A DNA stretch of 64,000 nucleotides from Chromatiales bacterium (lineage in GTDB: Bacteria; Pseudomonadota; Gammaproteobacteria; JAGRGH01). The notes beneath the pieces were generated by a model. The model saw only the letters and a list, made by a program, of their open reading frames with translations, ran no database searches and had not been told where the DNA came from. Made by a program: the position numbers and the translations under genes. The first letter of the stretch is position 1; each line of letters opens with the position of its first letter. The stretch spans positions 18,705-82,704 of the forward strand of contig JAGRGH010000054.1 in NCBI GenBank assembly GCA_020445605.1, written 5' to 3'. Positions 8,753-44,482 of the stretch are shown here, one piece after another.

Positions 8753-10087
8753 CTAGGGCGCGGCGCTCGCGAACAGGGTGCGGCCGAGCAGATCGAGCTG
8801 GGCCAGCAGCGGTGCGGACTCGGCCTCGAACGCCTCGCGGTATTCCGGCGCGATCGGCTCGGCGCTCGGCAGTTTCACGCGCTGCGGATTGACGTGACTG
8901 CCGTTGACGCGGAACTCGTAATGCAGGTGTGGCCCGGTGGCGAGCCCGGATTGGCCGACATGGCCGATGATCTGACCCTGGCGGACCCGCTCGCCTTTAG
9001 CTGAACCCTTGCCGTAACGCGACAGGTGCGCATACAGCGTCGAGCGGCCGTTCGCATGCTTGATCTCGACCGTGCGACCGTAACCGCCCTTGGTGCCGCG
9101 GAACTCGATCGTGCCATCGCCCGCGGCGCGCACCGGGGTGCCGGTTGCGGCCGCGTAGTCGACGCCCTTGTGCGCACGGATCTTGTTGAGGATCGGATGC
9201 TTGCGCCCGAGGCTGAAGCCCGAGGTGATGCGCACGATGTCGATCGGGTTGCGCAGGAAGGCCTTCTGCATGCGCTTGCCGTCGGGCTGGTAGTAGCTGC
9301 TGCGTCCGCGTGAGTCGGTAAAGCGCAGGGCGCGCAGGACGCGGCCCTGATTGACGAACTCCGCGGCGATCAGGTCGCCTTCGCGCAGCCGTTCGCCGTC
9401 CATGTAGAGTTCGTCGTAGACGACCGTGAAGGTGTCGCCGGCGCGCAGCTCCTGCGCGAAGTCGATATCCCAGCCGAACACATCGGCGAGCTGCATGATC
9501 AGGCCGTCGCTGAGTCCCGCGCGCTGGCCGGCGTCGAACAGCGAGGAGTCGATGGTCTCGGACACCCAGGTCCGGCGGCGCTCCACGTCCTGCTCGATGC
9601 GCTCGAAGCGCCAGCCGTCGTCGGCACGCTGGGCGGCGAGCGTGATGATCGGATCCGGGAGGACTTCCAGACGCTCCAGCCGGCCGTCCTCGACCGTCCC
9701 CAGCCGCACGGTCTGGCCCGGGTGCAGATTGGCCATCTCGCGGGTTTCGCGGCCCAGTTCCATGATCTCGTGCAGGGTCCGGGCGCTGACCCCGGCGCGC
9801 TGGAACAATGCGGCAAGGTTGTCACCGCTGGCGACCGTGAATTCGGTCCATTGCCGGGCATCGGCAACCGGGGCGGGATCGCCGGGCGCGGCGCTGCTGG
9901 TGGCCGGCGGCAGTTGCAGCGGGATGACGATGCGCCCGGTTGCCGGGGCCGTTGTGCCGGAGTCGTCGCCGCCGATCAGATACCAGCCGGCCGCACCGAG
10001 GGCCACGACCACAACCAGCGCGGCGATCAGGCCGCCGCGTGAGCGCTTGGGGGGTGTCGGGTCCAGTCGGGCGCTGTAGTCTCGCAT
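8753..10087 (-). CDS. M23-family peptidoglycan DD-metalloendopeptidase with OapA/LysM-like N-domain
   Basis: HKGVDYAAATGTPVRAAGDGTI...YGRTVEIKHANGRSTLYAHLS...GPHLHYEF (M23 zinc ligands HxxxD and HxH). N-terminal TM plus LysM/OapA-like segment. Start at MRDYSARLD (10087). Confidence 0.85.
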   Translation of the reverse strand: MRDYSARLDPTPPKRSRGGLIAALVVVVALGAAGWYLIGGDDSGTTAPATGRIVIPLQLPPATSSAAPGDPAPVADARQWTEFTVASGDNLAALFQRAGVSARTLHEIMELGRETREMANLHPGQTVRLGTVEDGRLERLEVLPDPIITLAAQRADDGWRFERIEQDVERRRTWVSETIDSSLFDAGQRAGLSDGLIMQLADVFGWDIDFAQELRAGDTFTVVYDELYMDGERLREGDLIAAEFVNQGRVLRALRFTDSRGRSSYYQPDGKRMQKAFLRNPIDIVRITSGFSLGRKHPILNKIRAHKGVDYAAATGTPVRAAGDGTIEFRGTKGGYGRTVEIKHANGRSTLYAHLSRYGKGSAKGERVRQGQIIGHVGQSGLATGPHLHYEFRVNGSHVNPQRVKLPSAEPIAPEYREAFEAESAPLLAQLDLLGRTLFASAAP

Positions 10088-10245
10088 GATCAGATCGTCG
10101 CAAGCTGCTGGACGAAAAAGGTTTTTACGACCGCGGCCGTTCTGGGCGGGCACGGTACCTGATTCGCCCGCGCACCCGCAAGCGGCATGACGGCGTGGCC
10201 GCGTTGCGGTAGAGTCGCTGCGCCCGCGCACGACCCCGGCGATCC

Positions 10246-11439
<1,194 letters not shown>

Positions 11440-36005: not shown

Positions 36006-37690
36006 TGGCCGGGTTGCGCGCGATCGTTTTTCTGCTGGCGTTCGGCTGGCTTGCCGTTGGTCAGGCAGCGGGTCCGCGCGAGGCCGGCATCGCCACGGCC
36101 CATCCGGCCGCCACGGCCGCCGGGCGCGCCGTACTCGAACGGGGCGGCAATGCGTTCGATGCGGCGGTCACGATCGCCGCGGTTCTGGCGGTGGTTGAAC
36201 CGTATTCCAGCGGCCTTGGAGGCGGCGGATTCTTTCTGCTGCATCGCGCCAGCGACGGCCACGAGACCATGCTCGATGCCCGCGAACGGGCACCGCTGGC
36301 CGCCACGCGCGATATGTACCTGGACGTTGACGGCCGCCCGTGGCCCGGGCTGTCCATCGACGGTCCGCTGGCGGCGGGCATTCCCGGTCTGCCCGCCGCG
36401 CTGGTGGACCTCGCCGCACGCTATGGCACGCGCCCGCTCGCCGAGCTGCTGGCGCCGGCGATCGCCGTGGCCCGCGACGGCTTCGAGGTCGATGAGATCT
36501 ATCGCAGTCTCGCCGCGCTGCGTTTGCAGGCACTGCGTGCATCCAAGGTCGCCGCGCGCGTGTTTCTCGATGACAACGCTGTTCCGGCGGCAGGCACCGT
36601 GATCCGCCAGGCGGAGCTGGCCGAGACGCTCGGGCGCATTGCCAGCGAGGGCCGGGCGGGCTTCTACGCCGGTGTTCTCGCGCAGCGGCTGGTCGACGGC
36701 GTGCACGCGGCCGGCGGCGTGTGGACCCTCGACGATCTCGATAGCTACCGCACCGTGGAGCGCGAGCCGGTACGCTTCGAGTACCGCGGATTTCGCGTCA
36801 GCTCGGCCGCACCACCATCGTCGGGTGGCGTGGTGCTCGCCGAGATTCTCAACCAGCTCGCCGCCGTGGATCTGCATGCGCTCGATCCCGCCGCGCGCAT
36901 GCACCGGATCGTCGAGGCCATGCGCAGGGCCTATCGCGATCGTGCGGAATACCTCGGCGATCCGGATTTCGTCACGATGCCGCTGCAACGGCTGCTGTCG
37001 ACCGACTACGCGCGCGGGCTCGCGGCTTCGATCGATCCGGCGCGCGCGACGCCGAGCGATTCGCTGGCGAAGCTCGCCGAACCGGCCGGGGCGGGCCGCG
37101 ACACCACGCACTTTTCGGTGCTCGATTTCGACGGCAATCGGGTTGCCGCGACCCTGAGCATCAACTATCCGTTTGGCAGCGGGTTCATGCCGGCCGGCAC
37201 GGGCGTGCTGCTCAACGACGAGATGGACGACTTCGCCGTCGCCGCCGGCGTGCCGAACGTGTACGGCCTGATCGGCGCATCCGCGAATGCCATCGCACCC
37301 GGCAAGCGCATGCTGTCGAGCATGAGCCCGAGCTTTGTCGATGACGGCCATCGGCTCGCGATCCTCGGCACGCCGGGCGGCAGCCGCATCATCACGATGG
37401 TGCTGCTGGCGATCCTGGAGTTCGAGCGCGGGGTGGCGGTCGACGACTGGGTCGCGGCGCCGCGCTTCCATCACCAGTACCGACCCGACGAGATCCAAGT
37501 CGAGCCGGAATTCGCCGTCGATTTTGCGCTCGATACATTGCGGGAGCGCGGCCATCAGGTGCGCGTGCTGGAGGAGCGATACGGCAACCTGCAGGCCGTC
37601 ACCTGGGATCGGGGCGCGGACCGCACGGCGGCCGCCAGCGACCCGCGCGGCGTCGGTGCCGCCGCGGTGTTCTCCCCAAGGAAGCGCTGA
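36005..37690 (+). CDS. ggt: Gamma-glutamyltranspeptidase
   Basis: Signal peptide; conserved GGT motifs incl. the autoprocessing threonine region (AGRDTTHFSVLD) and TPGGSRII. ATG overlaps the ferredoxin stop by 1 nt. Confidence 0.9.
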
Positions 37691-37893
37691 TCGATCCACC
37701 CGCGTCGCCAGCGCCACGGAACCGAAAAAGCGTCGTTTTTCGGCCCGCCCGGCCCTGAAAAACCGCTCCGAATTTGGGGCAACGGCCCCAGCGCAACCCC
37801 CTTGCGCTTCTCTGAGGATGTTCTATACAGAAGTAGAAGCGAACACCAAAGTCACTGCTTTTTTTGCCCGACAGCTGATGTAGAGGTTTGATC

Positions 37894-38190
37894 ATGCGGC
37901 GTCCAACCCATCCCGAAATCGGCGGGTGGTTCACTGATGTGGACGGCTCCCTGTTTGAGGTCGTAGCCACGGACGCCGATCGCGCGACGATTGAAGTCCA
38001 GTATTTCGACGGCGCGGTCGAGGAATTCGATTTCGACACCTGGGAAGCGATGGAACTGCGCCATGCCGAACCGCCCGACGACTGGTCCGGGGCGCTGGAG
38101 CTGGATCGTGACGATTACGGCGTCGATCTCGACAATCCGATGGAAGCGGAACCGATGAACGTGCTGGACGTTATAGATCGCGACTATTGA
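37894..38190 (+). CDS. Small acidic hypothetical protein (conserved gammaproteobacterial family of unknown function)
   Basis: MRRPTHPEIGGWFTDVDGSLFEVVATDADRATIEVQYFDGAVEEFDFDTWEAMEL...; very acidic. RBS-like tagagg upstream. Confidence 0.5.
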   Translation: MRRPTHPEIGGWFTDVDGSLFEVVATDADRATIEVQYFDGAVEEFDFDTWEAMELRHAEPPDDWSGALELDRDDYGVDLDNPMEAEPMNVLDVIDRDY

Positions 38191-38400
38191 ATCGGCCCAG
38201 TCGCGCAATCCGGGCGCGGTCGGGGTCGGCATGGCACAGGTGGACGTTCCGGACCGTGACCCCGCCGGGAGCGGGGTGGTCAAAGCCACGCAGCGCATTG
38301 ACGCTGCGCGACGCATGCCAGGGTCGGACTGCTTGGGTCGCCCGCGACACCGCGTCAGCGGGATGGCGTGGGACGGCCTACAACAACAGGAGATCGGCTT

Positions 38401-38910
38401 ATGAGGCGTCTGTACTTTCTCTTGCCGAACACCGGCACCGCGCGCCAGGTCGTGCGCGAATTGTTGCTCGCCCGGGTTGAGGAGCGGCACATCCATGTCG
38501 TGGCCCGCGATGGCACCGCGATGGAAGACCTGCCCGAGGCGAACCTGCTGCAGAAGAGCGATTTCATCCATGGAGTCGAGCAGGGTCTGGCCGTGGGCGG
38601 CGCGACCGGCGTTCTGGCCGGATTGATTGCCGTCACGTTTCCACCCGCAGGTCTCGCGCTGGGCGGCGGTGCCGTATTGGCGACCGCGCTTGCCGGTGCG
38701 GGGATCGGTGCGTGGGTGTCCGGCATGATCGGCACGGATATTCCCAACTCGCGCCTGCGTGAATTCGAATCGGCGATCGAGGATGGGCACATCCTGATGA
38801 TGGTCGACATCCCGAAGGCTCGTGTCGACGAGGTATCGAGAATGGTCCGCGAACACCACCCTGAAGCGGACGTTCATGGTACCGAGCCGGCGATTCCGGC
38901 CTTTCCGTAG
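38401..38910 (+). CDS. Hypothetical membrane protein with glycine-zipper TM segments
   Basis: AGGAG RBS 8 nt upstream of the ATG at 38401. GVEQGLAVGGATGVLAGLIAVTFPPAGLALGGGAVLATALAGAGIGAWVSGMIG: GxxxG-rich helices. Confidence 0.45.
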   Translation: MRRLYFLLPNTGTARQVVRELLLARVEERHIHVVARDGTAMEDLPEANLLQKSDFIHGVEQGLAVGGATGVLAGLIAVTFPPAGLALGGGAVLATALAGAGIGAWVSGMIGTDIPNSRLREFESAIEDGHILMMVDIPKARVDEVSRMVREHHPEADVHGTEPAIPAFP

Positions 38911-39079
38911 CGACCCAATCGGGATCACGGGCGGCGGCTGCGCAACGAGTCGTCTCCGCGAATCTTGCAGGCGCGGCGCGAGCCGTGGCAGGCAAGCAAG
39001 TGCCGTGGCCACGCCGCGCGTGTGTTTTGGAGTCCCGGTCGATCCGGGGCGAAAACGGCGTTCTCGATCTTGCGATGAC

Positions 39080-39120
39080 GGGTCCGGCATCACCTCGGCC
39101 GGGCCCGATTTTTTTGCGTT
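39080..39120 (+). terminator. Rho-independent terminator (+ strand)
   Basis: gggtccggc-atcacctcg-gccgggccc forms a 9-bp stem (one G-U pair), followed by gaTTTTTTTgcgTTTTTcc. Confidence 0.55.
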
Positions 39121-39182
39121 TTTCCTGCGGCTGCGAATTGGCTCTGGTGCACGCGCTCAGCCCGCAATGCGGCTGTAGAAAT

Positions 39183-39566
39183 TCAGCCAGCCAGCACGAC
39201 CCAGTCAGCCTCGATCCTCACCGGTACGGACTTGAGCCTTTGCCCCGCGCAGGGGCCGTGCACGCAGCGTCCGGTCTCGATCTCGAACAGGGCGCCGTGC
39301 ATCGCGCACTGGATGAACTCCCGCTCGTGATCCAGGAACCGGTGTGGTGCCCAGTCGAGCGGGGCACCGGTATGAGGGCAGCGGTTTTCGTAGGCGAACA
39401 CCGCGGCGTCACGACGCACGACGAACAGGTCCGCCGTCGAGCCGGCACGATGGCTGAAACGGGTCGCTTCGGGCCAGCGCAGCCCGCGGCTGTCGATCGG
39501 GTCCAGTGCCGTCCATTCACACAGGCGCACGCATGGTCTGCGCGGCGCCTGCATAGGATCGGTCAC
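39183..39566 (-). CDS. Rieske (2Fe-2S) domain protein
   Basis: CPHTGAPLD...CAMHGALFEIETGRCVHGPC: both Rieske CxH boxes present. Confidence 0.8.
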   Translation of the reverse strand: MTDPMQAPRRPCVRLCEWTALDPIDSRGLRWPEATRFSHRAGSTADLFVVRRDAAVFAYENRCPHTGAPLDWAPHRFLDHEREFIQCAMHGALFEIETGRCVHGPCAGQRLKSVPVRIEADWVVLAG

Positions 39567-41740
39567 GAGGCCAGCCAGCGCGACGGTTCGGAGGCCAGGC
39601 GCGCGTTGGTCAACTGACGGCGCAGTGCCTCGATCTCTTCGCGCGCCTCGTCGCGCACGAGCTTGAGTTCGGCTCGCAGGGCCTTGACGAGATCGCCGTC
39701 GGAGTTGGCCTGTGCTGCGCGGATTGCATCGACATGCGACTCGACCACGGCGGTGAGTTCAGCGACCCGCCACTCGTTTTCCGTTGCGCGCTTTGCTGCC
39801 TCCTGTTCGGCAGACTTCGCCTTCGCGAGCTGCGCATCGAACTGTGCCATGCGTTGCTCGGCTTCCGCGGCCTGCTTGTTCGCCGCGGCGCGCTGACGCT
39901 CGGCCTCGTCGAGCTTGCGTTGCATGGTTTCGTGATCGAGCTTTGCAGCGGTGAGTTCCTCGCTGCGCTGTTCCAGCTGTCGTTTGAGTTCAGTGAGCTT
40001 TGCGTCGAACTGGGTCGCACGCTCCGCGTTCGCCTTGTTGCGCTCGCCGTTGGCCTCGAGTTCGCGTGCGACATCCTCGAGTTCGTGCTCCAGGGCTTCG
40101 CGATCCAGCTTCGCCGCGTTGAGTTCGTCGGCGCGCTGCTCCAGTTCGCGTTGCGCCTGTGAATATTGCTCGCGAAGTTCGGCGGTCACGCTTTCGATCA
40201 GGCGATCGCGTTCCGATTCCAGTGCGGCAATGGCGGCCGCATGCGATTCGCCGGCCTGTACACTTTGTGCGCGCAGTGTCTCGATTTCCGCACGCAGGGC
40301 CGCCGCTTCGCGACCGGCCGTGGTATTGAGTTCATCGAGTGTTTCGGCGCGGGCCGCGATCTCTTCGCGCTCGTTCTTGAGCGTTTCATACTCCGAGCGC
40401 AGGGCCTCCAGCGCGATGCGCGCCTGATCTTCGCGGGCACGTGAGACCGTTGTGGCGCGGGCCTGCTCGGTGAACTTGAACAGGCGGCTGCGAAGTTCCG
40501 TCACCTGTGCCTCGGCCTTGCGTCGCGCGGTTTCGCTGTCGTCCAGCCGGGCCTCGATCAGCGCATAGATCTCGTCGGCACCTGCTTCGATCACGTCGGA
40601 GTCGCCTGCGGCTGCTGGCGAGGAAGCTGTGGTTTGCCCGTCGGGCTTCGAACGCTGGCCCGAGGATTTGCTGTCGGCAATGGGCACGGACATCTGCACG
40701 GCTTCTTCCTTGAAGGCCCTGAGTGCCGGAATACCCCCGCGCAGCACGAACGCTTCAAGCCCGCGTTCGACCAGCAGGTAGGCCGCGGTGGTTGAATTCG
40801 CGCCGTCCTCGCAGATCGTGATGTAGGGCGTGTCGCGCTTGAGTTCGTTCGCGCGCGCGCGGATTTCGCGTACCGGCAGATGGGCGACCGGTTCGGTTCC
40901 TTCGGGCAGCGGCTCATCGGTCTCGCGGACATCCAGCCAGTGCGCGCCCTTGTGCGTGCGCTGAATGGCCTCGGCGGCATCCACGAAGCGCACGATCGGT
41001 TTCTTGATCAGCTCGACGAAATCGTCCTTGCTCAGGCGCAGCAGTGTGACCGGCCCATCGGCGGTGACACTCGTGGAACGCCTTGCGCCAGACAACAACG
41101 CCTCTTCGCCAAAGCTGTCGCCCTCGGAAAGCGTTGCGAGCAACATGGGCCGGTCGTCGCGCGAACGCCGCTCCACCGTGCAGCGCCCGGTCTTGATGAC
41201 GTAGTAGTAATCGCCGGTGTCGCCCTGGCGGATGATGCGGTCGCCGTCGGCGACCTCGAATTCCTGCATGCGCATGAGGACCGACTCGATGTTCGCCGGC
41301 GAAATGCGATGGAACAGTGGCGAACGCAGGGTCTTGGACATCCAGTCGTCGGCGCCGTCCGGATCGACCTCGCTGACCTTGTGGTCGGCCAGGCGTTCCT
41401 CCTCAAGCACCTTGTTGAGCTTGCCGGTATTGACCGATGCATAGCGCAGCGTGGTGAGTGCCTTCGCCGTAAGTTCGCGCGGAATGCGGTGCGCCAGCGG
41501 AAAGCGTGCGGTCGGTGATCCGGCGGCGACGGCATCCACTTCGGTGCCGCCGGAATAGAAGCCGACATAGCCCCGAAGCAGGTAGATCGACACGGGCGCG
41601 GCATCGCCGCGGTTGAACAGCACCGAGCGCGGTGGCGCGGTCTGCACCGTGACCGCGTCGCCCAGGCGTGCGAACGCTTCGTCGGACAGCGTATTGAACG
41701 GCACGAAGCCGCGCAGGGTGTCGAGGTCGGGGTTGTCCAT
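39563..41740 (-). CDS. Multidomain protein: two cyclic-nucleotide-binding domains, a rhodanese-like domain, and a ~350-aa C-terminal coiled-coil
   Basis: cNMP domain 2 has FGEEALL...RRSTSV (CAP-family phosphate-binding cassette). Rhodanese-like loop YITICEDGANSTTAAYLL. C-terminal heptad-rich Ala/Glu/Arg/Leu region (AELREQYSQAQRELEQRADELNAAKLDREALEHELE...). Stop overlaps the Rieske gene start by 4 nt. Confidence 0.75.
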   Translation of the reverse strand: MDNPDLDTLRGFVPFNTLSDEAFARLGDAVTVQTAPPRSVLFNRGDAAPVSIYLLRGYVGFYSGGTEVDAVAAGSPTARFPLAHRIPRELTAKALTTLRYASVNTGKLNKVLEEERLADHKVSEVDPDGADDWMSKTLRSPLFHRISPANIESVLMRMQEFEVADGDRIIRQGDTGDYYYVIKTGRCTVERRSRDDRPMLLATLSEGDSFGEEALLSGARRSTSVTADGPVTLLRLSKDDFVELIKKPIVRFVDAAEAIQRTHKGAHWLDVRETDEPLPEGTEPVAHLPVREIRARANELKRDTPYITICEDGANSTTAAYLLVERGLEAFVLRGGIPALRAFKEEAVQMSVPIADSKSSGQRSKPDGQTTASSPAAAGDSDVIEAGADEIYALIEARLDDSETARRKAEAQVTELRSRLFKFTEQARATTVSRAREDQARIALEALRSEYETLKNEREEIAARAETLDELNTTAGREAAALRAEIETLRAQSVQAGESHAAAIAALESERDRLIESVTAELREQYSQAQRELEQRADELNAAKLDREALEHELEDVARELEANGERNKANAERATQFDAKLTELKRQLEQRSEELTAAKLDHETMQRKLDEAERQRAAANKQAAEAEQRMAQFDAQLAKAKSAEQEAAKRATENEWRVAELTAVVESHVDAIRAAQANSDGDLVKALRAELKLVRDEAREEIEALRRQLTNARLASEPSRWLAS

Positions 41741-41946
41741 CTGCTGGATACCGGGGTTGTCTCGAGCGCGGGTGCGCGCACGCGTTGCGGGAAGTGTAGC
41801 TTTTTCGCGCGTCGCGGTTCATGACGGAATTGGCAGATTGACGAACGGTCCCCAGGTCGCGGTCGTCGGCTCGGACGAGAACCGGCCCGCGTGGCCCGCC
41901 CTGCTAGAATCGCGCCCCGCCTCTCCCACACCCAGTGCGTTTCCAA

Positions 41947-43779
41947 ATGACCGCGTCCGCGCGTCCCGGCAGTCTGGTCCTGTACAAGTCCGCACCCGCG
42001 CGGGTGGTCTCGATCACCGACAAGATCGAGATCGTGCCCGCCGACGGCCGTCTGCGGCGGGTGCGCGACAAGGACATCGTGGTGCTGCATCCCGGCCCGG
42101 TCGGTGACCTGAATGCGCTCGGCAGCCCGAGTGGCGAGATCGAGGCCGCACACGAATTGCTCGGCGACGAGACCATGAGCCTCGCCGAACTCGCTGAGCT
42201 GATCTACGGCGAGTTTCGGCCCGACACGGCCTGGGCGACCTGGCAACTCATCGACGACGGGCTGTGGTTTGCCGGCTCCGTGGAGCGCGTGACAGCACGA
42301 CCGGCCGTCGAGGTCGCCGAGCTGCGCGCCGAGCGCGAGCGCAAGGCGCTGGAGAAGGCCGCCTGGGAGGGCTTTCTCGAACGCGCCCGCGCACGCAGAC
42401 CGCTGACCGACGCCGAGGACCGGCGCTACACGGTCGAGGTCGAGGCCGTGGCGCTGGGCAGGAGCGAGTCGTCTCGTGTGCTGAAGGCGCTCGATCTCGC
42501 GCAGACGCCTGAAACCGCGCACGCCTTCCTGCTCGAAGCCGGGGTCTGGCAGCCGCGTCGCAATCCGTACCCCGAGCGCTTCGGTCTGCCGGTCGACGAT
42601 GCCGACGGAACGGTCGGCGAGCTGCCGGACGAATCGCGCAGCGATTTGACCGGGACGCCTGCCTACGCGATCGACGACGCCGACAACACCGACCCGGACG
42701 ATGCCATCGCGCTCGACGGCGACCGTTGCTGGGTGCATGTCGCGGATGTCGCCGCGCTCGTGGCGCCGGAAAGTGAACTGGACATTGCCGCCCGCGAACG
42801 AGCTTCGAATCAATACCTGCCGGAGCGCACGGTGCACATGCTGCCGCGCGCCATCACCGAACGACTCGGCGTTGGCCTCGCGGCGGAATCCCCGGCCCTG
42901 TCCATCGGCTTCGTGCTGGATGCCGACGGCGCGCCCGGCGACGTGCAGATCGAAACCGCCCGCGTGCGGGTCGCGCGCATGAGCTACGAGCAGGCCGAGA
43001 CCAGACTCGATGCCGATCTGGCGCCGTTGTGGGCGATTGCCGAACGTCTGCAACAGCGGCGGCTCGCGGCCGGCGCCGTGCGGGTGCGACTGCCCGAAGC
43101 GCGCGTGCGTGTACTGCCAGACGGCGCGATCGACATCCGCGAACTGCCGCCGCTGCGCGCGCGCGATCTCGTCACCGAGTGGATGCTGGCGGCCGGTGAG
43201 GCGGTCGCGATCTGGCTGGAAGAACGGAGCATCGCCGCGCCGTTCGTGACACAGGGTCCGCCCGATGAGCGCGTGCCGCGACCCGGCGACGCGATGTCCG
43301 GGCAGTACGCGTTCCGGCGGGCGTTTCAGCGCGCGGTCATCCGCACTGGCGCGGCGCCGCATGCGGGGCTGGGGATCACGCGCTATGTCCGTGCGACCAG
43401 CCCGCTACGGCGTTACGCGGACCTAGTCGTGCACCAGCAACTGCGCGCGGCGTTGGCCGGTGCTACGCCGCTGGACCACGAGGCGATGCTCGAGCGCATC
43501 GCTGCCATGGACAACCTCGCTGGTGCCATCGCGCGGTCCGAGCGATTTTCCAACCTGCACTGGAAACTCGTGTGGCTCGGCGAGCAGCAGGGCTGGAAGG
43601 GCGAGGCGGTCGTGGTGGAACTCGGCGAGCGCGGCCGGGGCACCGTCATCGTGCCGTCGCTGGCGCTGGAGACGAAGGTGCGGCTGCCGGACGGCGCGCG
43701 ACTCGACGACCGCATCGAACTGAGCCTGGACCGCGTGGATCTTCCCGCACAGATCGCCTACTTCCACACGAAGCGCTAG
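41947..43779 (+). CDS. RNB-domain exoribonuclease (RNase II/R family)
   Basis: AIDDADNTDPDDAIALD and ATSPLRRYADLVVHQQL RNB catalytic motifs; S1-like C-terminal segment. Confidence 0.85.
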   Translation: MTASARPGSLVLYKSAPARVVSITDKIEIVPADGRLRRVRDKDIVVLHPGPVGDLNALGSPSGEIEAAHELLGDETMSLAELAELIYGEFRPDTAWATWQLIDDGLWFAGSVERVTARPAVEVAELRAERERKALEKAAWEGFLERARARRPLTDAEDRRYTVEVEAVALGRSESSRVLKALDLAQTPETAHAFLLEAGVWQPRRNPYPERFGLPVDDADGTVGELPDESRSDLTGTPAYAIDDADNTDPDDAIALDGDRCWVHVADVAALVAPESELDIAARERASNQYLPERTVHMLPRAITERLGVGLAAESPALSIGFVLDADGAPGDVQIETARVRVARMSYEQAETRLDADLAPLWAIAERLQQRRLAAGAVRVRLPEARVRVLPDGAIDIRELPPLRARDLVTEWMLAAGEAVAIWLEERSIAAPFVTQGPPDERVPRPGDAMSGQYAFRRAFQRAVIRTGAAPHAGLGITRYVRATSPLRRYADLVVHQQLRAALAGATPLDHEAMLERIAAMDNLAGAIARSERFSNLHWKLVWLGEQQGWKGEAVVVELGERGRGTVIVPSLALETKVRLPDGARLDDRIELSLDRVDLPAQIAYFHTKR

Positions 43780-43849
43780 AGGTCCTGAAGCCGGGCATGT
43801 CCCGACTGCACGACGAAGCTGAAGCCTTCGAACTACGCTGGTGGGGCTG

Positions 43850-44482
43850 TCATTCTTGAACTGGAATCCTTCCGAGCACTTCAATCTCGCCGTCGTCAAG
43901 GATCTTGCCGACCAGCAGCTCGCCGATGCCGATCAGCTCCAGCGTCAGCGCATCGATGTTCGGGCGATGATTCACGAAGACGATTGGCGACGTTCCGCGA
44001 TGCTTCGCGAGCAGGGCGCCTGCCGCAGCCAGGAATGCTTCCTGCCCCGTGGTGTCCTCGACCGGCCGTTGTCGCAGGTCCGGATCGGCGATGAACTTCC
44101 CGAATGCGATCTGCGCGGTCTGTGTACAGCGGCACATGGGCGAGCTGATCACGACCGGGTTGATATCGTGTGCCGAGAATGCCGCGCCAACCGCGCGTGC
44201 CTGGGCGCGGCCTTCCTCCGTCAGGATGCTTTCGCCCACACAGTTGCCGCTTGAATCCCACACCAGCATGTTCGTGCCGTCGCGGTTTCCGCCGGATTCC
44301 GCGTTGCGCATCAAAACGACCATGTTCGGGTCGTGGCGCAGTTTCTCCCAGAGACCAACGTCTGCTGTTGCGGTTGATGACAGCAGCACGAGCACGATCA
44401 TCCAGTTCAGTGTAGCTGTTGATTCGCGCCGCTGGGGTGAGCAATCGATCTGCCCGAACCGGCCGCATGGCAGCCGTGCCAT
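43850..44482 (-). CDS. Histidine-phosphatase-superfamily (phosphoglycerate-mutase-like) protein with RHG changed to RNA; probable signal peptide
   Basis: VVLMRNAESGGN aligns to the branch-1 RHGES motif with Asn (AAC) in place of the phospho-acceptor His. VISSPMCRCTQTAQIA and VNHRPNI match the family. An internal Met at 44404 would start with a signal-peptide-like MIVLVLLSSTATA. Confidence 0.55.
   Translation of the reverse strand: MARLPCGRFGQIDCSPQRRESTATLNWMIVLVLLSSTATADVGLWEKLRHDPNMVVLMRNAESGGNRDGTNMLVWDSSGNCVGESILTEEGRAQARAVGAAFSAHDINPVVISSPMCRCTQTAQIAFGKFIADPDLRQRPVEDTTGQEAFLAAAGALLAKHRGTSPIVFVNHRPNIDALTLELIGIGELLVGKILDDGEIEVLGRIPVQE

Follow-up and report, generated by a model that had tools for sequence, protein, structure and literature searches.

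A tandem cyclic nucleotide-binding and rhodanese module: a candidate second-messenger receptor of a Chromatiales bacterium and its relatives

The window analysed here, a 64,000-nucleotide stretch of a Chromatiales bacterium genome (assembly GCA_020445605.1, contig JAGRGH010000054.1, positions 18,705 to 82,704), carries on its minus strand (39563..41740) a gene for a 725-aa protein in which a rhodanese domain and a long coiled coil come after two consecutive cyclic nucleotide-binding (CNB) domains; a small Rieske [2Fe-2S] gene adjoins it. We give about even chances to the reading that this protein is a native cyclic nucleotide (cNMP) receptor with a rhodanese output, whose coiled coil would dimerise or scaffold it and for which the Rieske protein would be an accessory neighbour. 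The ~345-aa N-terminal CNB-CNB-rhodanese module defines a large, uncharacterised family found mostly in Gammaproteobacteria. The domains are individually well known and the protein is already deposited under a generic name; it is the fused output that is uncharacterised.

Few bacterial effectors of cAMP or cGMP are known besides the CRP-type regulators, and according to a 2024 review (PMC11139211), CRP is in most bacteria the only route by which cAMP acts globally. If a cNMP does control the rhodanese cysteine, the protein would provide a direct post-translational link from second-messenger signalling to sulfur trafficking, and if the rhodanese merely docks partners, the family would be an unstudied cNMP-dependent scaffold. 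To the original prediction the two genes looked like an undescribed signalling unit, and this agrees with our literature search, in which a CNB-rhodanese fusion was not found described in full-text literature (an earlier mention in the Burroughs & Aravind 2023 rhodanese survey or in the CbpA paper cannot be excluded); in addition, no curated NCBIfam model covers the module family or the Rieske gene. The interest comes mainly from the size of the family and from its easy testability with a soluble construct of ~350 aa, for which the short family members with a CDTGRRS loop would be better first targets than the window protein. The Rieske pairing is of less weight, being confined to some lineages.

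Domain architecture of the 725-aa protein

The 725-aa open reading frame (ORF), taken from the ORF list with an ATG start and a TGA stop at 39563-39565, is a real, native gene with a cytoplasmic product. Its GC content by codon position (0.71/0.46/0.77) shows a coding-type pattern like that of the neighbouring genes, and the database search found an identical protein (P0001) on 24 contigs from several samples, publicly titled 'MAG: cyclic nucleotide-binding domain-containing protein [Chromatiales bacterium]'.

Modelled with AlphaFold2 (72 homologues, mean pLDDT 91.1), residues 1-370 form two beta-barrel domains with a flexible hinge between them (residues 122-128), followed by an alpha/beta domain. 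In Foldseek alignments of 250-275 columns (E~1e-20), residues 1 to ~270 match the tandem CNB-A/B domains of PKA RI-alpha (1ne4) and PKG I-beta (4z07), and in sequence alignment residues 15-282 span the third and fourth CNB domains of Plasmodium PKG, a degenerate-plus-canonical pair like that of the window protein. The dual cNMP-binding domains claimed by the original prediction are thus borne out as two CNB folds by the model and by Foldseek, although in the 725-aa protein only the second is called by Pfam. The likeness to PKA regulatory subunits and PKG (1ne4, 4z07, 5dyk) lies in the two consecutive CNB barrels joined by a helical hinge; unlike them, the window protein is bacterial, has no kinase domain, inhibitor sequence or partner kinase gene, and continues into a rhodanese and a coiled coil.

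The first domain, CNB-A (residues ~10-120; 41381..41713, minus strand), is modelled with strands at residues 31-104 and a helix at 105-122 (pLDDT 94-98), and its CNB beta-barrel fold is indicated by the model, by Foldseek matches over both barrels and by the two Pfam CNB stretches that relatives, as opposed to the window protein, do receive. Residue conservation was counted over 96 aligned metagenomic homologues and, separately, over 79 of the 80 genome loci described below. CNB-A lacks a canonical phosphate-binding cassette, with G74-S75 and no Glu (Ser or Thr at position 75 in 78/96 homologues), and its loop between helix 76-79 and R88 is ~5 residues longer than that of CNB-B. It does conserve a P87-R88-x-x-[ST]91-A92 motif (T91 in the window), with G74 kept in 77/96, P87 in 88/96 and R88 in 89/96 homologues.

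The second domain, CNB-B (residues ~131-250; 40991..41350, minus strand), matches Pfam PF00027 over residues 162-246 with 86.9 bits (cutoff 27.5), and both Foldseek and the model, with strands at residues 159-237 and pLDDT >90, give it the CNB fold. Its cassette, F210-G211-E212-E213-A214-L215...R221-S222-T223 (~41060-41113, minus strand, by alignment), is canonical and near-invariant: F210, G211 and E212 are kept in 96/96 homologues, A214 and R221 in 95/96 each, and E212 and R221 together in all 79 genome loci that aligned. The residue after R221 is unusual: the window has Ser, the family consensus Asn. The retained cassette of CNB-B carries the signature of cNMP phosphate and ribose binding; as for cNMP-binding residues in both N-terminal domains, the expectation holds for CNB-B but not for the non-canonical cassette of CNB-A.

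The rhodanese domain (residues ~251-350; 40691..40990, minus strand) is joined without a linker to the C-terminal helix of CNB-B (residues 238-249 in the model, with the rhodanese from ~251). Its Pfam match (PF00581, residues 257-339) is marginal in the 725-aa protein, at 23.4 bits against a cutoff of 22.2, but is backed by relatives, which score 37-52 bits. Structures of rhodaneses (3gk5, 8a56, 6pfz, 5ve3, 2jtq and 1gmx) were matched at 9e-6 to 8e-2, together with the rhodanese domain of Npsr, and the conserved residues W268, D270, R272, N287 and P289 make up the (L/W)-x-D-V-R and N-x-P motifs of the fold. The active-site-type loop C310-E-D-G-A-N-S316 (40793-40813, minus strand, from sequence and alignment) has its cysteine between strand 306-309 and helix 314-325 of the model, at the start of a six-residue loop, and C310 aligns with the loop Cys of 3gk5, of the CoA-persulfide reductase 8a56 and of 6pfz, that is, in all three printed alignments. 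The rhodanese of the original prediction, with its ICEDGANS loop (residues 309-316) and its Cys, is therefore confirmed, the Cys being C310.

The domain resembles GlpE, PspE, CoA-persulfide reductase/Npsr and a PRF fusion (1gmx, 2jtq, 8a56, 3nta, 5ve3) in its ~100-aa alpha/beta fold and in the Cys that starts a six-residue loop. In contrast to these rhodaneses, which stand alone or are attached to a redox enzyme, it is fused to CNB sensors, its loop is acidic and without Arg, its Cys is dispensable in ~30% of metagenomic relatives, and its NCBIfam scores are all far below the cutoffs. A place in the Cdc25/arsenate-reductase branch, whose Cdc25 motif is C-E-[FY]-S-x-x-R (PMC2887360), was ruled out: C-E-D-G-A-N-S-T has no Arg at +6, and the loop has six residues and not the seven of C-X5-R.

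Behind the rhodanese comes a disordered linker rich in Ser, Pro, Ala and Gly (residues 352-391; 40568..40687, minus strand; pLDDT <50 over 352-394), and then a long helical coiled-coil region (residues 392-716; 39593..40567, minus strand), which DSSP on the full-length AlphaFold2 model resolves into helices 392-565, 571-678 and 682-716. The long coiled coil of the original prediction is present, but its near-continuous rod measures ~325 aa instead of ~350 aa. The rod consists of 20% Ala, 17% Glu, 12% Arg and 11% Leu, is rich in Gln and nearly free of Pro and Gly, has no transmembrane segment, and gives sub-threshold matches to SMC, tropomyosin and Rad50 coiled coils (Pfam/NCBIfam). Neither a helix-turn-helix (HTH), a kinase domain nor a transmembrane segment was found in the whole 725-aa protein by the Pfam and NCBIfam scans and by composition. 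Within the rod, a 56-aa unit is duplicated in tandem (residues 531-586 and 587-642; 39815..40150, minus strand), with 23/56 identical residues, 61% identity at the DNA level and an alignment score of 116 against 35 +/- 6 in 500 shuffles, of which 0 reached 116; the rod is therefore still evolving by duplication within itself.

The C-terminal segment of the protein (residues ~659-713; 39602..39766, minus strand), in which E691 is at least 90% conserved (alignment A4), is 35-47% identical by BLASTP to segments that lie internally, 130-560 aa before the C-termini, in P0033, P0029, L007, L012 and other relatives. Since this segment is internal in relatives, and since the end domain related to the formylglycine-generating enzyme (FGE) that closes most full-length long forms is absent, the window protein is a shortened long form. 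An imperfect 24-nt direct repeat (39560-39612; 2.3 copies, 70% matches, TRF score 55) spans the end and stop of the gene; it could be due to chance or could be the scar of a rearrangement that placed the Rieske gene behind the shortened gene.

Size and forms of the module family

The word-indexed search returned 103 homologues, ~400-1,266 aa in total length, which share only the first ~340 residues of the query (45-47% of it). In the exhaustive HMMER search of 1.84 billion representatives, where family size was counted at 50% identity clustering and E<=1e-30, 1,036 representatives were retained, and in ~143 of the top 150 the residues ~5-340 were matched as one stretch at the extreme N-terminus of proteins of 340-1,870 aa. 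The domain combination, which the original prediction had taken to be uncommon, thus belongs to a family of ~1,000 clusters at 50% identity. Note that the top matches also include giants of up to 3,779 aa with 6-16 CNB-like stretches (P0226-P0229, P0232, P0315), whose architecture is unrelated.

The GTDB species genomes were scanned with an 8-sequence alignment (A2) as pattern source, and 80 listed genome loci were shown to match the full module; the 567 relatives found by a generic CNB motif were not taken as family size. The 80 loci come from Sedimenticolaceae, endosymbionts of the tubeworms Lamellibrachia and Escarpia, Chromatiales, Thiohalomonadaceae, Thiohalobacter, Ectothiorhodospiraceae and many Steroidobacteraceae. 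About half of them encode stand-alone proteins of ~353 aa that consist of the module alone (L028, L041-L044, L056, L057 and others; gene ~9983-11047), mostly in Steroidobacteraceae. They have a conserved neighbourhood that differs from that of the long forms: upstream, a FadB/FadJ-like gene shares their strand, and the downstream neighbour, on the other strand, encodes a PilZ-domain protein.

The rhodanese domain is the sole constant companion of the sensor domains. The long forms (480-1,900 aa) vary in their C-terminal part, which is either a coiled coil or a coiled coil followed by an FGE/PvdO-like domain. The latter ends most full-length long forms of 1,100-1,900 aa (L012, L024, L032, L033, L037, L045, L059 and others; residues 942-1167 in P0003). 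PvdO comes out as its best NCBIfam match (156 bits; cutoff 500), and we refer to it as FGE-sulfatase/PvdO/EgtB-type. The motifs ANCF-x-CGS-x-WD and RGG...GFR are conserved, and no Cys is conserved in the long relatives after the RGG motif, where the catalytic Cys pair of FGE is located. With a rhodanese at one end of the rod and an FGE-like domain at the other, the arrangement is striking, and the window protein departs from it by having no FGE-like domain. In two loci the long form is split: L086 (6001-10606) has a 730-aa CNB-rhodanese-coiled-coil gene followed by a separate 710-aa FGE-sulfatase gene, and in L091 (6001-8777) a 403-aa module gene overlaps by 4 nt the 522-aa ORF behind it, which has no Pfam match. 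These splits could be gene fissions or assembly frameshifts.

Some neighbouring genes are related to sulfur metabolism. The glutathione-degrading GGT is a recurrent divergent neighbour of the long forms; near P0023 (L092) lie a cysE-type serine acetyltransferase, a metB-like Cys/Met PLP enzyme and MTHFR, and near P0046 (L091) a two-domain rhodanese and a PALP enzyme. Beyond GGT this signal is anecdotal and does not appear among the conserved neighbour clusters, several large ones of which were discarded as artefacts of antisense-frame ORFs in high-GC DNA.

The Rieske gene and its neighbourhood

The small Rieske gene lies at 39183..39554 on the minus strand if it starts at ATG 39554 (123 aa), or from GTG 39566 if it encodes 127 aa, and its product matches Pfam PF00355 with 46.8 bits (cutoff 20.3). 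The cluster ligands, in the motifs C-P-H and C-A-M-H (~39297-39380, minus strand, by alignment), follow the C-x-H...C-x-x-H pattern, and C59, H61, C83 and H86 are invariant in 120/120 homologues. Two extra Cys, C97 and C102 in the 123-aa numbering, are also invariant within a G-x-C-x-x-G-P-C motif (P0106-P0225) and might form a disulfide near the cluster. The protein is similar to small Rieske-type ferredoxins, namely NirD-like proteins and the ferredoxin components of dioxygenases such as AndAb and HcaC, in size (~110-125 aa) and ligand pattern. It differs from them in its two extra invariant Cys and in its NCBIfam score, the best being NirD at 28.3 bits against a cutoff of 74.65, and no oxygenase or nitrite reductase gene was found near the window Rieske gene.

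At the junction (39552..39566, minus strand), the TGA at 39563-39565 is followed by an 8-nt spacer and the ATG at 39552-39554, with the alternative GTG (39564-39566) embedded in GTGA. The translational coupling through a 4-nt overlap that had been proposed exists as this GTGA, but it requires the Rieske gene to begin at GTG 39566. In public gene calls the start is ATG 39554, 8 nt past the stop; in addition, homologues have 18-20 residues before the first conserved Gly, and the window protein would have 23 from the ATG or 27 from the GTG, so that the ATG start is the more likely. Under either start the two genes are near-contiguous on one strand. No terminator-like site was found on the minus strand between them in a scan of 38300-42100, and since the next gene is convergent, their co-transcription is very probable. 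The co-expression of the two genes in this genome, as the original prediction had it, is accordingly likely.

Rieske orthologues were sought around the 80 genome loci with a single-sequence search and with a profile hidden Markov model built from 120 homologues, both of which agreed. An orthologue lies downstream on the same strand in 10/80 loci, namely in 8 of the 26 long forms whose downstream flank covers at least 1.5 kb and in 0/38 short forms. The synteny in relatives, on which the original prediction had staked itself, thus recurs but is absent from 70/80 loci. A PfkB kinase gene stands between the CNB gene and the Rieske gene in 8 of the 10 loci, and where a PfkB gene lies downstream, its gap to the CNB gene is 17-91 nt in 10/12 loci. 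In loci that have both genes, PfkB and Rieske overlap or abut each other, as in the coupled pairs (3-nt gap or overlapping ORFs) of L024 (15161-16423), L045 (13600-14862), L046 (12918-14158), L059 (8928-10185) and L087 (3347-4536). This kinase is ribokinase-like, with ribose-1-phosphate kinase as the best NCBIfam match (65 bits against a cutoff of 330), and its specificity is not resolved by NCBIfam. Direct adjacency of the CNB and Rieske genes was seen only in L032 (6 nt), in L033 (140 nt) and in the window. Three further contexts agree with this: P0012 has the order CNB, PfkB, Rieske, P0026 has a separate FGE gene between CNB and Rieske, and P0015 has no Rieske gene in its context.

More widely, the long forms sit in a block of genes made up of an aspartic protease, HU (minus), GGT (minus), the CNB gene, optionally PfkB, optionally Rieske, and DUF6763 (minus). 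Of this block the window retains Rieske, DUF6763 and GGT, though rearranged, and its 64 kb hold neither an FGE nor a PfkB gene. The Rieske gene is therefore best seen as a lineage-restricted accessory neighbour rather than an obligate partner, and the window pair as a remnant of an array of the type CNB-rhodanese-coiled coil-FGE / PfkB / Rieske. An association between the FGE domain and a Rieske neighbour (p = 2e-4 over all loci) was rejected as an independent signal, as it was not significant within the long forms (p = 0.19).

Mechanism, rival explanations and genomic setting

In the mechanism that we propose, cAMP or cGMP would bind the canonical cassette of CNB-B (E212, R221) and reposition its C-terminal helix, as in other CNB proteins. 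As this helix runs straight into the rhodanese, its movement could gate the access to, or the reactivity of, the Cys310 loop, either for the acceptance and transfer of persulfide sulfur or for the docking of a partner. CNB-A would act as an allosteric modulator or bind a second ligand, and the ~325-aa helical rod would dimerise or scaffold the protein. A bolder and rather unlikely proposition is that the module represents a widespread and unrecognised class of second-messenger effectors, in which a cNMP directly gates a protein persulfide carrier. This would tie cyclic-nucleotide signalling to the trafficking or sensing of sulfane sulfur in sulfur-oxidising free-living and symbiotic Gammaproteobacteria and in Steroidobacteraceae; in some lineages PfkB and Rieske would be operon partners and the rod would end in an FGE/PvdO-like oxidase domain.

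Several observations weigh against a receptor with rhodanese output. The gating is argued by analogy with rhodanese chemistry and with allostery in CNB proteins, the arrangement of the domains relative to one another is uncertain (pTM 0.64 for residues 1-370 and 0.39 for the full length), and no nucleotide cyclase was found near the gene or among the 10 other large window ORFs scanned. Two residues of the window loop CEDGANS are acidic, and it lacks the Arg that the family consensus C-D-T-G-x-R-S has; the sub-clade of the window protein has C-[DEN]-x-G-x-x-S, likewise without Arg. The window loop thereby departs from the neutral or cationic pattern for anionic sulfur donors (C-x-x-G-x-R-[ST]), so that a thiosulfate-type sulfurtransferase activity is doubtful for this protein. 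Of the 96 metagenomic homologues, 67 have the Cys (16 have Ser and 11 Gly), and its loss from 29/96 means that catalytic sulfur transfer cannot be the function of the whole family. The Cys is kept in 73/79 genome loci and replaced by Ser or Gly in 6/79, and the function of the relatives with such replacements evidently needs no Cys. Moreover, the repeated retention of the Rieske gene in diverged genomes could point to a closer functional tie than 'accessory' implies. The tubeworm-symbiont clade is one of those with Gly at the Cys position: L007, L008 and L009, from tubeworm endosymbionts and a related Chromatiales MAG, encode proteins of 1,904-1,905 aa with Gly for Cys and loops such as VYGTEVGQAA, and have PfkB but no Rieske gene downstream.

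These losses, with the remaining domain conserved and the Cys giving way to Ser or Gly within divergent loops, also speak for the main rival, possible though in our view doubtful, in which the rhodanese is a non-catalytic docking or regulatory module and the protein a cNMP-regulated scaffold that acts through its coiled coil in localisation or partner assembly. Many rhodanese-homology domains are inactive, the window loop is acidic and without Arg, the coiled coil varies from 0 to ~1,500 aa and is still duplicating internally, and relatives show a sub-threshold match to the crescentin rod. A precedent is P. aeruginosa CbpA (Endoh & Engel 2009, cited in PMC11139211), reportedly a polarly localised, non-transcriptional cAMP-binding protein outside the CRP type, with tandem CNB domains of which one is degenerate; CbpA is likewise a bacterial tandem-CNB receptor, without rhodanese or long coiled coil. 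However, 43/43 stand-alone short forms, which have no coiled coil, keep the textbook loop C-D-T-G-R-R-S, which suggests that the core module works without a rod and retains a catalytic-type site, and which argues that the ancestral module carried a working rhodanese site. The Cys is also found in most genome loci (in 30/36 of their long forms), and the nearest solved relatives are catalytic persulfide carriers. Taken together, the loop sequences point to a catalytic-type site that is ancestral and common, dispensable in some lineages and atypical in the window protein. A further possibility, which we regard as very improbable, is that the CNB domains do not sense cAMP or cGMP and either recognise a different small molecule, in the manner of the nucleoside-binding trypanosome PKA-R, or serve only as dimerisation or allosteric folds. 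The missing cassette Glu and longer loop of CNB-A, the unusual residue after R221, the cAMP-independent trypanosome PKA-R structures among the Foldseek matches and the lack of a cyclase gene in the neighbourhood would fit it, but in CNB-B the residues G211, E212, A214 and R221, and the [ST]/A behind R221, are 95-100% conserved in the family, and trypanosome PKA-R proteins have lost exactly those cassette residues.

It is also improbable, if less so, that the two genes form a dedicated two-protein unit in which the Rieske [2Fe-2S] protein is the direct redox partner either of the rhodanese Cys or of the sensor. Such a unit would explain why the genes are contiguous on one strand without a terminator between them, why a Rieske gene lies downstream in 10/80 loci and near P0012 and P0026, in deeply diverged genomes with modules only 36-44% identical, why the adjacency persists without PfkB in L032, L033 and the window, and why all cluster ligands and both extra Cys are kept. 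Yet the Rieske gene is absent from all short forms and from 18/26 long forms with enough flank, and in 8/10 loci the coupling is to PfkB and not to the CNB gene. Orthologues with ~50% identity occur in unrelated contexts without a CNB-rhodanese gene nearby, in Porticoccus after an M48 peptidase and beside hslVU, and in another genome between SnoaL and SBF genes. In addition, as the whole block (HU, GGT, DUF6763) is syntenic, the linkage between CNB and Rieske genes may just reflect an inherited gene order. The conserved CNB-rhodanese/Rieske 'unit' of the original prediction is thus not upheld as stated, its Rieske link being supported in part only; a functional tie between the two proteins is possible, neither general nor direct. 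We therefore retain the cNMP receptor with rhodanese output and an accessory Rieske neighbour as the preferred reading.

A CRP-type regulator was ruled out as well. The protein shares a CNB-type effector domain with the CRP/FNR family, its residues 1-90 matching FtrB (NF006901) at 32.5 bits against a cutoff of 211 and CRP scoring 33 bits against a cutoff of 266 (NCBIfam), but the architecture is incompatible and has no C-terminal HTH (Pfam, NCBIfam).

The window is ordinary core chromosome, carrying recA and the genes for cytochrome oxidase subunit I and for a type II/IV secretion-family ATPase; the surroundings of the 725-aa gene further include ftsY (SRP54 family) and an EF-G-like gene. An Rfam scan of 37500-44000 gave no match, and the scan of 38300-42100 was uninformative, with 0 promoter-like sites and 4 terminator-like sites, all on the plus strand, against 3.5 expected. 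Downstream of the CNB-rhodanese gene and on the opposite strand lies the DUF6763 gene (37888-38190, plus strand), which is kept in many long-form loci. A 180-aa ORF adjoins it (38368-38910, plus strand), with a Gly-rich hydrophobic stretch, weak matches to DUF1269/YflT only and no NCBIfam family. Finally, a 776-aa ORF (41032-43362, minus strand) was rejected: it runs across two genes that are supported by homology, namely the RNase II-family gene (41935-43779, plus strand) and the CNB gene at its start, and is therefore read as an artefact, antisense or off-frame, of high-GC DNA. When ORFs were filtered naively by greatest length, this artefact had taken the place of the true CNB gene.

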